64,000 nt of DNA. Origin: Solirubrobacterales bacterium (GTDB taxonomy: Bacteria; Actinomycetota; Thermoleophilia; Solirubrobacterales; 70-9). Of this stretch, positions 36,481 to 46,447 are shown piece by piece (the stretch's first letter is position 1; every line of letters starts with the position of its first letter). The notes below the pieces were generated by a model, which worked only from the letters and a program-made list of their open reading frames with translations, ran no database searches and was not told where the DNA came from. The stretch covers positions 1,529 to 65,528 of the forward strand of contig DATCLC010000069.1 of the NCBI GenBank assembly GCA_036564135.1, in the 5' to 3' direction. The translations under genes were made by a program, and so were the position numbers.

Positions 36481-36497
36481 CGCTCCCACTACGGATG
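36481..36497. promoter_or_regulatory. 17-nt element copy a
   Basis: TCCGCTC CCA CTACGGA. A TACAAT -10-like hexamer lies at 36519-36524, and the mini-ORF ATG is at 36554. Confidence 0.55.
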
Positions 36498-36553
36498 GCG
36501 GAACGCCGTCCGCGAATACAATCGGTCGTGTTCGCAGAAGGGAGGTGTCAGCG

Positions 36554-36667
36554 ATGTCAGCTGTAGTTGCCAGCACCGATCAGACGCAGGTGCAGACGAG
36601 CGACTGGTACGCGCATCCTGGCGTCGAGGGCTCAGCGAGCAGGTCGCCGCAGGAGGGCGGCCGGTGA
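36554..36667 (+). CDS. 37-aa mini-ORF preceding the Zn-ribbon gene
   Basis: AAGGGAGGTG SD 7 nt upstream. MSAVVASTDQTQVQTSDWYAHPGVEGSASRSPQEGGR. GC3 is higher in this frame than in the alternative long frame. Its TGA overlaps the GTG of the next ORF (GTGA 36664-36667). Confidence 0.4.
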   Translation: MSAVVASTDQTQVQTSDWYAHPGVEGSASRSPQEGGR

Positions 36668-36888
36668 TCTCGCGGGTCTATTGCCCGCACTGCGCGAGGG
36701 CGACGGTCGCGGTGCGCGGAGTCCCCATCGCGGACCAATGCCCGCGGTGCCGGACGCCGCTCTTCGGATCCGAGCCCTCCCCGCCGCTGGATCTCCACAA
36801 GATCGAGACCCGGGTCCGCGAGCGGCTCTACCCGACGAGGCGCGGCCCGCGCACTGGGACCCGTTCGCGCTCCTTGGCGCGGCGCTGA
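36664..36888 (+). CDS. Zn-ribbon mini-protein (paralogue 1)
   Basis: 74 aa. AGGAGGG SD upstream. CPHC-x17-CPRC: VISRVYCPHCARATVAVRGVPIADQCPRCRTPLF. Basic tail. Confidence 0.4.
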   Translation: MISRVYCPHCARATVAVRGVPIADQCPRCRTPLFGSEPSPPLDLHKIETRVRERLYPTRRGPRTGTRSRSLARR

Positions 36889-36899
36889 GCGCGACCGCC

Positions 36900-36916
36900 T
36901 CCGTGGCGACTACGCA
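36900..36916. promoter_or_regulatory. 17-nt element copy g
   Basis: Plus strand reads TCCGTGG CGA CTACGCA. TAGCGT lies 45 nt downstream, and the ADH ATG lies 83 nt downstream. Confidence 0.5.
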
Positions 36917-36999
36917 GGCGGCTGCGCGGGCAGCCCGGTGGTGAGCCCGCGCTCGGCCACCTAGCGTCGAGGCGGGAAAAACAAGCCAAGGAGGCAGCG

Positions 37000-38052
37000 A
37001 TGCCGGAGACGATGAAGGCGTTCCGATTGATCGAGTGGGAACGCCCCCCTGAGCTCGTCGAGGTGCCGGTTCCCGATCCCGGCCCGGGGGAGGTAGTGCT
37101 CAAGGTCGGCGGCGCGGGTGCCTGCCACTCCGATCTGCACATCATGGAGTGGCCCGAGGGCCAGATGCCTTGGAAGACGCCCTTCACCCTCGGCCACGAG
37201 AACGCAGGCTGGGTCGCCAAGGTCGGCGCCGGGGTCGAGGGGTTCGCGGAAGGTGACGCCGTGATCGTGTACGGGCCGTGGGGCTGCGGCCAGTGCCGCG
37301 CCTGCCGGCTCTCCGAGGAGAACTACTGCGAGCGGCAGGATGAGATCGGGAGTCTCGGCGGCGGGCTCGGACTCGACGGCGGCATGGCCGAGTACATGCT
37401 TGTGCCCTCCCCCCGCCTGCTCGTCCCGCTAGGCGACCTCGACCCACGCGACGCCGCGCCGCTCACCGACGCGGCGCTCACTCCGTACCACGCGATCAAG
37501 CGATCGCTGCACCTGCTCGTGCCGGGCTCGACGGCCGTCGTGATCGGCGTCGGGGGGCTCGGTCATTTGGCCGTGCAGATCCTGAAGGCGCTTTCCGGTG
37601 CGCGCATCGTGGCGGTGGACCTGGCAGCTGACAAGCGCGAGCTCGCGCGCGAGGCCGGCGCGGACGAAGCGTTCGAACCCGGCGACGAGGCGATCGAGGC
37701 CGTCCGCGAGCTCACCGGCGGCCGAGGGGCCGAGCTGGTGCTCGACATGGTCGGTGCCGGCCAGACGATCGCGCTCGCGCAGCAGGTCGCCCGGGTGAAG
37801 GGCGACCTCACGCTGGTCGGGCTCGGCGGGGGGTCGCTCGAGTACGGCTGGTTCACCATGCCGTACGAGTGCGAGGTGGCCTCCACGTACTGGGGCAGCG
37901 GGATCGAGCTGATGGAGGTCCTCGACCTCGCGCGCTCCGGGGCGATCCGCGTGGAGCAGGAGCGCGCCTCCCTCGACGACGCCGCGGAAACCTACGAGCG
38001 CCTGAGCCGCGGCGAGATCCGCGGGCGCGCGGTGGTCTGCCCGAACGGCTGA
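37000..38052 (+). CDS. zinc-dependent NAD(P) alcohol dehydrogenase
   Basis: GACHSDLH, GHENAGWV, structural-Zn motif GCGQCRACRLSEENYC, Rossmann VIGVGGLGHLAVQ. Confidence 0.9.
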   Translation: MPETMKAFRLIEWERPPELVEVPVPDPGPGEVVLKVGGAGACHSDLHIMEWPEGQMPWKTPFTLGHENAGWVAKVGAGVEGFAEGDAVIVYGPWGCGQCRACRLSEENYCERQDEIGSLGGGLGLDGGMAEYMLVPSPRLLVPLGDLDPRDAAPLTDAALTPYHAIKRSLHLLVPGSTAVVIGVGGLGHLAVQILKALSGARIVAVDLAADKRELAREAGADEAFEPGDEAIEAVRELTGGRGAELVLDMVGAGQTIALAQQVARVKGDLTLVGLGGGSLEYGWFTMPYECEVASTYWGSGIELMEVLDLARSGAIRVEQERASLDDAAETYERLSRGEIRGRAVVCPNG

Positions 38053-38101
38053 GACCCCGGGAGGCGGCGCACTTCATCCCCGCCCACACACACCCGCCGA
38101 G

Positions 38102-45397: not shown

Positions 45398-45482
45398 CGG
45401 TACCGCCCGCGCTGGCAGGCCACAAACACCCCTGGGCGCGCCGCCGGTCGCGGCCGCGGGTCGAAGCCCGCGCGGACGTGGG

Positions 45483-45920
45483 TCAGCTCGTCCCGCCGGG
45501 AGCGGTGAACAGCGGGCGCAGGGATTCGGGCAGCTGCGCGAGCACGTCGTCGAGCTCGCCGGTGCTCACGTTGCGCGCCAGGACCTTGGCGACCGCCTCG
45601 GTCGCGACCGAGGCTTGGGTCTTGCCCTCGAGCAGCGCGGCGTCCGAGACCCGCTCAAGGAACGCGTCGACGTCGTGGTAGGCCTCGGGCACGCGCCCGG
45701 GCTGGAAACCCTCGTAGTAGATGCCGCGGATCATGGTGGGTAGCTGCGCGGCGAGCTGCGCGCTCTCCTCGGCGGTCAGCCGGTCGCGGAGCGTGTGCAG
45801 CACGCCGCGCAGGACCCGGTATGCGGTGCGGTGGTCACTGATCCCGAGCTCCGCCGCCATTTCGTTCAACCACGCGCGCGCCTGGTGCGCGCTGCGATCG
45901 ATGATGCTGGGTTCCGACAT
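45483..45920 (-). CDS. DUF2267 domain protein
   Basis: 145 aa. [38 protein letters not shown] and the repeat structure typical of DUF2267. Confidence 0.8.
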
Positions 45921-45955
45921 CGTTGACCTCGTGCGACGGGCTCGGCTCGTGACCG

Positions 45956-46156
45956 TTAGTCCAGGACGAAGGTCACCTTCAGGTCGACGCGGAAGCCGGA
46001 GATCTGGCCGTCCTCGACGAGGACCTTCTGCTCCTTGACCCAGGCGCCCTGGATCCCGCGTACCGTCTCCGACGCCTTGGCGATGCCCTGCTTGATCGCG
46101 TCCTCGAAGCTCTCCTCCGAGGTCGCCGTGATCTCAATGACCTTTGCGACCGCCAT
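45956..46156 (-). CDS. dodecin (flavin-binding)
   Basis: 66 aa. MAVAKVIEITATSEESFEDAIKQGIAKASETVRGIQGAWVKEQKVLVEDGQISGFRVDLKVTFVLD. AAGGAGGA SD upstream. ORF-track entry trimmed to ATG 46156. Confidence 0.85.
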   Translation of the reverse strand: MAVAKVIEITATSEESFEDAIKQGIAKASETVRGIQGAWVKEQKVLVEDGQISGFRVDLKVTFVLD

Positions 46157-46239
46157 CGCGATCCTCCTTCGTAGGGATTTGATGCCGATGCTCACCAACG
46201 ACCGCGACGACGACATCGGTACGGGCGGCCGGTCCTGAG

Positions 46240-46256
46240 TCCGGGCTCACTACGGA
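46240..46256. promoter_or_regulatory. 17-nt element copy c
   Basis: TCCGGGC TCA CTACGGA, 83 nt upstream of the dodecin ATG (minus strand). Confidence 0.5.
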
Positions 46257-46430
46257 CCCCCGGCTGCTCGGGCCGGTCAGCGCCGAGGCTTCGGTGTGCG
46301 GATGATCGAGCCGAGTACCCGCCTGGGGCGGTCGCAACCGGGCGCGTGCGTCGGAGCGATGGGTAGATCCCAGGGTCGTCAGCGAAGACCACGTTCGCTT
46401 GGCCGCGGTCCGGTCGGTAGCCGTCGGGCC

Positions 46431-46447
46431 TCCGTAGTGGCGACGGA
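46431..46447. promoter_or_regulatory. 17-nt element copy d
   Basis: Plus strand reads TCCGTAG TGG CGACGGA. TACGGT lies 45 nt downstream, and the hsp20 ATG lies 87 nt downstream. Confidence 0.55.

Follow-up and report, generated by a model that had tools for sequence, protein, structure and literature searches.

A stress-gene island and its 17-nucleotide box

The DNA studied here (the window) is a stretch of 64,000 nucleotides (nt), with a GC content of 72%, of a Solirubrobacterales (Thermoleophilia) genome (contig DATCLC010000069.1), in which a 17-nt element, TCCGTAG-N3-CTACGGA, recurs upstream of genes of a 10-kb island. According to Pfam searches the island encodes a Zn-dependent alcohol dehydrogenase (Zn-ADH), a phosphoenolpyruvate (PEP) synthase or pyruvate phosphate dikinase-type enzyme (PpsA), a tandem universal stress protein (USP), a CBS-pair protein, a response regulator, a GAF-GAF sensor kinase, a DUF2267 protein, a dodecin and an Hsp20/alpha-crystallin (Table 1). 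These are the classes that had been named in the original prediction, the regulator and the kinase included. The tandem USP aligns over its full length with the structures of Rv2623 (3CIS/2JAX, E 1e-13) and the CBS-pair protein matches Rv2626c (1XKF, E 3e-5), while a membrane open reading frame (ORF) and a zinc-ribbon ORF (41706-42118) open the minus-strand operon. By Pfam, no DNA-binding gene other than that of the regulator and no sigma or anti-sigma gene lies in the island. No GC or skew anomaly of the island was seen, and there is therefore no sign of a recent horizontal arrival.

At two separate places in the island, 36554-36888 on the plus strand and 41706-42118 on the minus strand, a small ORF is paired with a C4 zinc-ribbon ORF (CPHC...CxxC) that comes after it. 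Each pair forms the first set of cistrons after a box, and no Pfam family was matched above its cut-off.

A search of the window with TCCGTAGCCACTACGGA, allowing at most three mismatches, returned six copies of the element, all within the island (boxes a, g, f, b, c and d in Table 1). Dinucleotide shuffles gave a mean of 0.10 such sites and none of 100 shuffles reached six, which confirms the recurrence noticed before. All six sites fall within a part of the window that amounts to 16% of its length. Five of the copies lie exactly where they had been placed, and copy a was found at 36479-36495, 2 nt away from the 36481-36497 given for it. Box b is indeed a perfect 7-3-7 palindrome, and a search for half-sites showed that the additional CTACGGA next to it (42890-42896) is real; CTACGGA occurs 10 times in the window where 3.5 are expected, and 6 of these 10 lie inside the island. 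A symmetrised matrix derived from the six sites scores them at 18-27 bits and the runner-up 17-mer of the 64-kb window, within the kinase gene, at 10.4 bits, a gap that is partly circular as the matrix was made from the scored sites. All six boxes are intergenic, as had been claimed, in that they lie outside ORFs of high third-position GC. The degenerate seventh copy that had been proposed at 10556-10572 (TCCGTAGTTCGGGCGGA) exists as a sequence, and we rejected it as a copy: it scores 9.0 bits, lies between two same-strand genes and comes without a second box or a -10 element. A half-site at 42796-42805 was set aside as well, being without a partner half.

The box in related genomes

We aligned the regulator with 13 homologues and used the alignment to collect 80 loci, 1.38 Mb in all, from species-representative genomes; none of these loci had a part in building the matrix. 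The homologues are annotated as Solirubrobacterales, and the related loci stem from Solirubrobacterales or Thermoleophilaceae metagenome-assembled genomes. The convergent regulator-kinase pair recurs among these loci, often with USP, PpsA and CBS genes nearby. Matrix matches of at least 14 bits were found 19 times in intergenic and 4 times in coding DNA (rate ratio ~12, binomial P = 2e-8), so that the two kinds of DNA are clearly not hit at equal rates, and the matches sit upstream of USP, CBS, regulator and kinase-divergent genes. Relatives also carry a variant strong box, an asymmetric 7-2-7 form (TCCGTAG-TNN-CCCGCA or its complement) that occurs in both orientations before USP, CBS, regulator and ADH genes; in L024, L030, L036, L038, L042 and other loci this box falls 1 bp short of the length of the window's 7-3-7 palindrome.

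The element is also conserved at orthologous promoters. In contigs of close relatives (regulators 80-86% identical) boxes are present, at the same offsets, at the promoters of the regulator, of USP, of the dodecin-DUF2267-kinase operon and of Hsp20.

Several arrangements around the regulator gene are worth recording. In a clade with regulators 67-71% identical (L001-L014) a conserved small gene with a charged, probably coiled-coil product (...EIKQQKK*) precedes the regulator gene, and the box lies upstream of this small gene (e.g. L003:9507 and L006:234), which makes the regulator the second gene of a box-controlled operon. The box upstream of the regulator in Conexibacter (L035/L050-type) reads ATCCGTGGAAACGACGGAT, and Patulibacter brassicae (L071) and Svornostia abyssi J379 (L077) have a box at this place too. 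In the closest NCBI relative (L192, regulator 86% identical) a phage-type integrase gene (L192:808-1764) lies ~1 kb from the regulator locus, and the gene order around regulator and kinase differs from that of the window (DsrE, Pyr_redox_2, USP).

Promoter layout around the box

When the matches in relatives were aligned on the box, [CG]GAT peaked at +21/22 (22 of 68 flanks, at most 4 at other offsets) and TANNNT at +46/47 (16 of the 68, at most 3 elsewhere), and Shine-Dalgarno-like (GGAGG-like) words peaked at +71-76. Many start codons at +58-60 are without a Shine-Dalgarno sequence, as expected of leaderless mRNAs. On the promoter-side flanks the matrix gave a mean of -8.2 bits for the 17-mer from +7 and of ~-24 at all other offsets, and the mean on non-promoter flanks was -22. 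The columns of this second box are led by G at +10, C at +20, G at +22 and A at +23, with the preferences T/C, C, S, G ... C, S, G, A (TCSG-N9-CSGA form). The recurring CSGATG(G) is thus the gene-side half of a degenerate second box and not a separate element; CGGATG had been considered as a -10 element and was dropped given TANNNT at +46, the starts at +58 and the matrix peak at +7.

The typical layout consists of the primary box, a 6-bp gap, the degenerate box 23-24 bp gene-ward and, ~22 bp further on, a TANNNT -10 element. The 17-nt element had originally been read as an operator; this reading is supported, with the correction that the element is one half of a two-box operator at fixed -10 spacing. 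If transcription starts ~7 nt past the -10 element, the boxes would centre at ~-66 (strong) and ~-43 (weak, over the -35 region), and the distance from the end of the second box (+23) to the start would be ~35 nt, judging from TANNNT at +46-51 and leaderless-type starts at +58/59.

The promoters of the window fit this layout (Table 1). Box f, for instance, has SGAT at +22 and a -10-like hexamer at +47 on both of its sides, and for the regulator promoter the relative with the 86% identical regulator has TAACGT at the offset of TAACTT in the window. At promoter a, which has GGGAGG at +45-50 and an ATG at +59 from the box, the order is reversed: the weak box lies upstream, and the strong box has its putative place near -42. 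In an alignment of the upstream regions of three Hsp20 genes, of which one had been selected via the motif (L193 had not), five things alone are conserved, namely the strong box, the half of the weak box that faces the gene, the TA...T of the -10 hexamer, the Shine-Dalgarno sequence and the start codon ATG.

We also scanned metagenome contigs with TCCGTAG-N3-CTACGGA-N18-22-SGATG, independently of the regulator gene, which gave 111 loci. The SGATG offset was 21, 22, 23, 20 and 19 in 49, 32, 16, 11 and 6 loci, respectively, and TANNNT again peaked at 46-47 (29 occurrences, at most 3 elsewhere). The downstream ORFs included 17 USPs and 8 LuxR-type regulators as well as CBS, Hsp20 and ADH proteins. 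A homologue of the regulator and/or a DosS-like kinase is carried by 29 of the 111 loci, often tens of bases from the box. Clustering of the ORFs gave as the commonest families USP (16 loci), the kinase (16), Pyr_redox_2 (15), the regulator (15) and GGDEF-EAL (11), with no other transcription factor family among the clustered ORFs of the 111 loci and no enrichment of sigma or anti-sigma genes in them. Pfam confirmed these families and added NorB-type nitric oxide (NO) reductase, cytochrome bd subunit I (CydA) and DUF1918. The linkage to regulator and kinase that the original prediction had proposed is supported by these loci; its description of the regulon as local was too narrow, as boxes in relatives precede genes for GGDEF-EAL and Pyr_redox_2 proteins, NorB and CydA.

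The layout has a practical side-effect, in that the weak box holds an ATG (CGGATGG) that misleads gene callers to wrong start codons. Longest-ORF calling and at least one public annotation begin genes there or in the strong box, for instance a 147-aa ORF (41706-42149), an 86-aa dodecin ORF and a 261-aa regulator in GCA_009379895.1 (L192:2622). In the first case the ATG lies in the gene-side half of the secondary box of f, which reads CGGATGG on the minus strand. The true starts of these three genes are downstream, after Shine-Dalgarno sequences. The start of dodecin is likely the ATG at 46156, which is preceded by GAAGGAGG; the start listed for its ORF (46216) lies upstream of the putative transcription start.

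Table 1. Genes, boxes and candidate promoter elements of the island (scores are those of the symmetrised matrix; offsets are relative to the primary box)
Feature	Position	Strand	Sequence	Basis or remark
Mini-ORF, 37 aa	36554-36667	+		Pfam matches weak, all below gathering cut-off
C4 zinc-ribbon ORF	36664-36888	+		Pfam matches weak, all below gathering cut-off
Zn-ADH	37000-38052	+		Pfam ADH_N, ADH_zinc_N
PpsA	38221-40782	-		Pfam PPDK_N, PEP-utilizers, PEP-utilizers_C
Tandem USP	40852-41709	-		Pfam Usp, two stretches
C4 zinc-ribbon ORF	~41927 to 41706	-		Frame-by-frame translation, third-position GC
Small membrane ORF	~42118 to 41933	-		Frame-by-frame translation, third-position GC
CBS-pair protein, 143 aa	42277-42708	+		Pfam CBS, two stretches
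Response regulator, REC + GerE/LuxR helix-turn-helix	42985-43629	+		Pfam Response_reg, GerE
Sensor kinase, GAF-GAF-HisKA_3-HATPase_c	43631-45397	-		Pfam
DUF2267 protein	45483-45920	-		Pfam
Dodecin	45956-46156	-		Pfam Dodecin domain starts at residue 23 of long ORF
Hsp20/alpha-crystallin	46535-46993	+		Pfam HSP20
Weak box of a	36455-36471		TCCGCCCTCCCCACCAA	0.6 bits (background ~-24); 24 bp upstream of box a
Primary box a	36479-36495		TCCGCTCCCACTACGGA	18.2 bits; pairs at 4/7 positions
Candidate -10, mini-ORF/zinc-ribbon promoter	36517-36522	+	TACAAT	Sequence reading
Primary box g	36900-36916		TCCGTGGCGACTACGCA	21.7 bits; 12 nt past a stop codon
Secondary box of g	36923-36939		TGCGCGGGCAGCCCGGT	-1.6 bits (background ~-24); +23 bp
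Candidate -10, ADH promoter	36962-36967	+	TAGCGT	+46..51 from box g
Candidate -10, minus-strand operon	42121-42126	-	GAGGCT	+47..52 from box f
Secondary box of f, minus-strand side	42149-42165		TCCGTGCGGGATCCGCG	0.4 bits; -24 bp
Primary box f	42173-42189		TCCGTGGTGGCTACGGG	20.3 bits; common to two divergent promoters
Candidate -10, CBS promoter	42236-42241	+	TACCTT	CCGATG before it at 42209-42214
Primary box b	42867-42883		TCCGTAGCCACTACGGA	27.2 bits; perfect 7-3-7 palindrome, upstream of regulator gene
Weak second box of b	42891-42907			-2.4 bits; +24 bp; extra CTACGGA half-site at 42890-42896
Candidate -10, regulator promoter	42930-42935	+	TAACTT	+47..52 from box b
Candidate -10, dodecin-DUF2267-(kinase) operon	46188-46193	-	GAGCAT	+47..52 from box c
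Secondary box of c	46216-46232			-3.2 bits; -24 bp; gene-side half CCGATGT on minus strand
Primary box c	46240-46256		TCCGGGCTCACTACGGA	20.1 bits; picked up via CTACGGA half
Primary box d	46431-46447		TCCGTAGTGGCGACGGA	23.4 bits
Secondary box of d	46454-46470		CCCCGAGTCGCGGCGGA	5.4 bits; +23 bp; kept in Hsp20 promoter alignment
Candidate -10, Hsp20 promoter	46493-46498	+	TACGGT	+46..51 from box d; TA...T columns conserved

Directly to the right of the Hsp20 gene lie four tRNA genes (Pro-ggg, Gly-tcc, Trp-cca and Leu-tag; 47115-48183, minus strand), and a fifth, Leu-caa, is found 2 kb farther on (50184-50267, plus strand). The listed ORF 47376-48146 (minus strand), with a weak CAP-domain match, overlaps the tRNA-Trp gene and its real start must therefore be farther downstream. 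Past the tRNA cluster follow genes for a CAP/SCP-domain protein (48807-49352) and an SOS-response-associated peptidase (SRAP; 49392-50183), both on the minus strand and without boxes; they appear unrelated to the island.

The probable reader of the boxes and its counterparts in other bacteria

We propose that of the two boxes of an operator the 17-mer is the primary, high-affinity one and that its reader is most likely a dimer of the regulator encoded at 42985-43629, a reading to which we give a probability of about 0.7. It agrees with the original prediction of a regulon operator owned by this regulator and the GAF-GAF kinase, in which binding by the regulator is the step that we infer. The best match of the regulator in the PDB is DevR (3C3W, E 1e-31, 113 bits), FixJ (5XSO) scoring 44 bits. 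In the alignment with the 13 homologues D15, D16, D61, T89 and K111 are invariant, the phospho-acceptor Asp included, and so is the reading helix SVRTVETHR; for the DNA-binding domain alone LiaR, EsrB and VraR rank above FixJ. Pfam finds two GAF domains in the kinase and no PAS domain. The GAF-A of the kinase matches the haem GAF domains of DosT (2VZW) and DevS (2W3D) with E 1e-50 and retains an 11-residue motif and the GNLYLTEK motif of DosT/DevS, conserved motifs that we take, from the DosS/DosT literature, to hold the proximal haem-ligand His and the distal Tyr.

According to this proposal the kinase, with its DosS/DosT-type haem GAF-A, would sense O2, NO or CO and phosphorylate the regulator, and the phosphorylated regulator would occupy the strong box first and bind the weak box cooperatively thereafter. 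From around -43 it might recruit RNA polymerase where a promoter has no -35 element. Seven transcription units of the island would be switched on in this way, among them the gene of the regulator itself and the operon with the kinase gene, and in relatives the set of targets would be wider (USP, CBS, Hsp20, Pyr_redox_2, GGDEF-EAL, NorB and CydA).

Several points weigh against this proposal. The matrix comes from just six sites. The gene calls in the relatives were crude (a third-position GC filter, with 26% of the DNA called intergenic), and the clustering of matches near the regulator is moderate (2.8-fold denser within 3 kb, P = 0.006). Many of the 80 loci are without a match of at least 14 bits, which the 7-2-7 variant boxes explain; many more promoters of relatives came to light when the grammar alone served as the anchor (a GAT placed 24 nt ahead of a TANNNT close to a start codon). 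In an unbiased screen of 4-mer dyads (a 4-mer, N1-12 and its reverse complement; intergenic versus coding) TCCG-N9-CGGA ranked 8th of 3072 with P = 1e-3, which fails multiple testing, and the top dyad was the terminator-like CCCC-N10-GGGG; a screen for intergenic enrichment of 7-mers found CTACGGA and TACGGAT enriched just ~2.7-4 fold, amid AT-rich words. The 111 metagenome loci include near-duplicate contigs, by which their counts are inflated. The positions relative to the transcription start rest on a -10-like hexamer and on leaderless-looking start codons. Finally, a box over the -35 region would suit a repressor as well, many paralogous regulators share the reading helix and one of these could be the binder, and in some relatives stand-alone GerE proteins with a similar helix are encoded behind boxes. 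Two alternatives are therefore live, repression instead of activation and binding by a paralogous LuxR-type protein.

Repression would mean that the same protein, bound to the same boxes, occupies the -35 region and blocks RNA polymerase until the signal removes it. The weak box does overlap the putative -35 region. Actinobacterial promoters often work without a -35 element, and its absence here does not prove dependence on an activator. However, the layout equals that of DevR-activated promoters, with two phased boxes of which the proximal one ends ~34-35 nt from the start, little effect is to be expected of a repressor at ~-66, where the strong box would lie, and the autoregulation and the stress-gene content fit positive control. 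We therefore regard repression as unlikely, if well worth bearing in mind.

It is somewhat less likely still that the boxes are a true operator read by another LuxR/FixJ-type protein, either a paralogous response regulator or a stand-alone GerE protein. There are thousands of close homologues, with several paralogues per locus in relatives, and the invariance of the reading helix across homologues of the regulator would allow such a binder, as would the 99-aa GerE-only proteins (helix SVRTVESHR) encoded directly behind perfect boxes in several metagenome loci. Against this stand the absence of another DNA-binding gene from the island, the box upstream of the regulator gene both here and in relatives, and the fact that the regulator and the kinase of the island are the only regulators enriched in the motif-anchored loci. 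Stand-alone GerE proteins of 80-99 aa (helix SVRTVESHRANLQ) start ~58 nt past perfect boxes in L105:4822, L106, L135, L166 and L153, and could be truncated paralogues that compete for the operator or modulate it.

A reading of the element as a -35/-10 promoter for an alternative (extracytoplasmic function-type) sigma factor, instead of a transcription factor site, is highly improbable. CTACGGA and CSGATG do recur at a fixed spacing of ~20 nt, but the dyad symmetry of the 17-mer is kept, the element occurs in both orientations relative to the gene, one copy serves divergent promoters, a separate TANNNT of the housekeeping-sigma type lies 46 nt downstream, and sigma and anti-sigma genes are neither present in the island nor enriched in the motif-anchored loci. 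We give next to no credence to an RNA hairpin (attenuator or terminator), a REP/MITE-like repeat (repetitive extragenic palindrome or miniature inverted-repeat transposable element) or chance recurrence, for although box b could form a 7-bp stem and box g follows closely on a stop codon, b is the sole self-complementary copy, the halves of the boxes each drift toward one consensus without covarying, the flanks of the six boxes are unrelated to one another, an Rfam search of the window returned tRNAs only and no family for the element, the position relative to -10 elements and start codons is fixed, and the shuffles argue against chance.

On this refined view, soil bacteria of the Solirubrobacterales type share an operator that is built from two boxes in the manner of DevR but differs from it in sequence, and that is linked to a regulator and its DosS/DosT-like partner kinase. 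Thermoleophilia are deep-branching and abundant soil Actinomycetota that are almost unstudied genetically, and in a limited literature search we found no paper linking their genera with DosR/DevS. The proposal would extend to them the DosRS-type gas/hypoxia stress switch that has been studied mostly in mycobacteria and Streptomyces. The promoter grammar (a strong box, a weak box 23-24 bp on and a -10 element at +46) would allow a hypoxia/NO regulon to be predicted from metagenome contigs, with USPs, Hsp20, CBS proteins, Pyr_redox_2 enzymes, GGDEF-EAL proteins, NO reductase and cytochrome bd as its predicted members.

The closest counterpart is the DevR/DosR-DosS/DosT dormancy system of Mycobacterium tuberculosis, with which the island shares a REC + GerE regulator with phospho-acceptor Asp, a GAF-GAF-HisKA_3-HATPase_c kinase whose GAF-A is by sequence near the haem domain, the target classes (a USP like Rv2623, a 143-aa CBS pair like Rv2626c and Hsp20/alpha-crystallin) and a box at the regulator's own gene (box b). 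A DevR promoter always has at least two boxes in tandem, of which one is conserved and another degenerate; the proximal box lies 33-34 nt from the start, the boxes of tgs1 centre at -63.5/-42.5 (PMC3177182), and hspX has a box at -43.5 (PMC13486717); two phased boxes, strong and degenerate, with the proximal one over the putative -35 region are what we find here. The differences lie in the DNA word and its reader. DevR reads GGGACT through K179, K182 and N183 (PMC13486717), and in the alignment with 3C3W (SVRTVETH versus AEKTVKNY) these residues correspond to R/E/T in the regulator of the window. These altered reading residues and the TVE-x-HR helix lead one to expect a different operator, and the box is indeed TCCGTAG-N3-CTACGGA instead of GGGACT..AGTCCC. 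As noted before, the island holds no DosR box: GGGNC-N4-GNCCC (DevR/OsdR-type) occurs 5 times in the window (5.6 expected), each time elsewhere. Furthermore, the box centres are 23-24 bp apart instead of 21 bp, and regulator and kinase are encoded by convergent genes and not by a single operon.

A similar likeness and difference holds for OsdR/OsdK of Streptomyces coelicolor, a DevR-like two-component system amid target genes of the same classes as those of the island. OsdR reads the Dev-type sequence AGGGCCGATCGGCCCT and binds M. tuberculosis DevR targets, and its targets around its own gene include USPs, a Zn-dependent alcohol dehydrogenase and pyruvate phosphate dikinase (PMC5069765). The box of the Solirubrobacterales bears no relation to AGGGCCGATCGGCCCT. 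The window has a single exact copy of the OsdR consensus core, GGGCCGATCGGCCC (12127-12140), inside the coding ORF 11971-12576.

NarL-type sites are TACYYMT heptamers in a 7-2-7 arrangement, and the half-sites found here (TCCGTAG/CTACGGA, with a 3-bp spacer) have in common with them just the general heptamer inverted-repeat layout. The helix S-x-RTVE-x-HR is common to the regulator of the window and FixJ of rhizobia (SVRTVETHR in the window, SPRTVEVHR in FixJ; 1X3U, ISPRTVEVHRAN), as is a GTAG core to the box of the window and the FixJ sites, and FixLJ is an oxygen-linked haem kinase system, as the present one would be to judge from the sequence of its kinase. FixJ selects GTAGTTTCCC and GTAMGTAG in SELEX (systematic evolution of ligands by exponential enrichment), its fixK site is TAAGTAATTTCCCTTA, and on the fixK promoter it occupies two adjacent stretches, -69..-44 and -57..-31 (PMC4999443). 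The fixK site and the 7-2-7 variant of the relatives, TCCGTAGTTCCCCGCA, are alike at 10 of 16 positions, and the 7-2-7 variants contain GTAGTTYCCC; the exact FixJ decamer GTAGTT[TC]CCC is at best weakly enriched in intergenic DNA of the loci of relatives (9 intergenic versus 10 coding). However, the partner kinase is GAF-type and not a PAS-type FixL, the regulator overall is far nearer to DevR than to FixJ, SsrB and EsrB have a TVE-x-HR helix too, so that it is not specific to FixJ, and the targets form a stress regulon, whereas in rhizobia they are fixK/nifA. The FixJ connection is a lead only.

Tentatively, the haem-GAF sensor of Thermoleophilia might signal via a FixJ-like helix and operator while the DevR stress genes and the -66/-43 geometry are retained, through a regulon-wide swap of the DNA word or an ancestral link between FixLJ and DosRST; we hold this to be possible, though doubtful. 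If true, the regulator and all its sites co-evolved to a new DNA word, or an ancestral FixLJ/DosRST state has been preserved. The island and its relatives offer an example from nature in which regulon and promoter geometry are conserved and the DNA word is a different one, and with it a test bed for the specificity of LuxR/FixJ-type helices, with R180/E183/T184 of the window regulator versus K179/K182/N183 of DevR as the candidate specificity residues.

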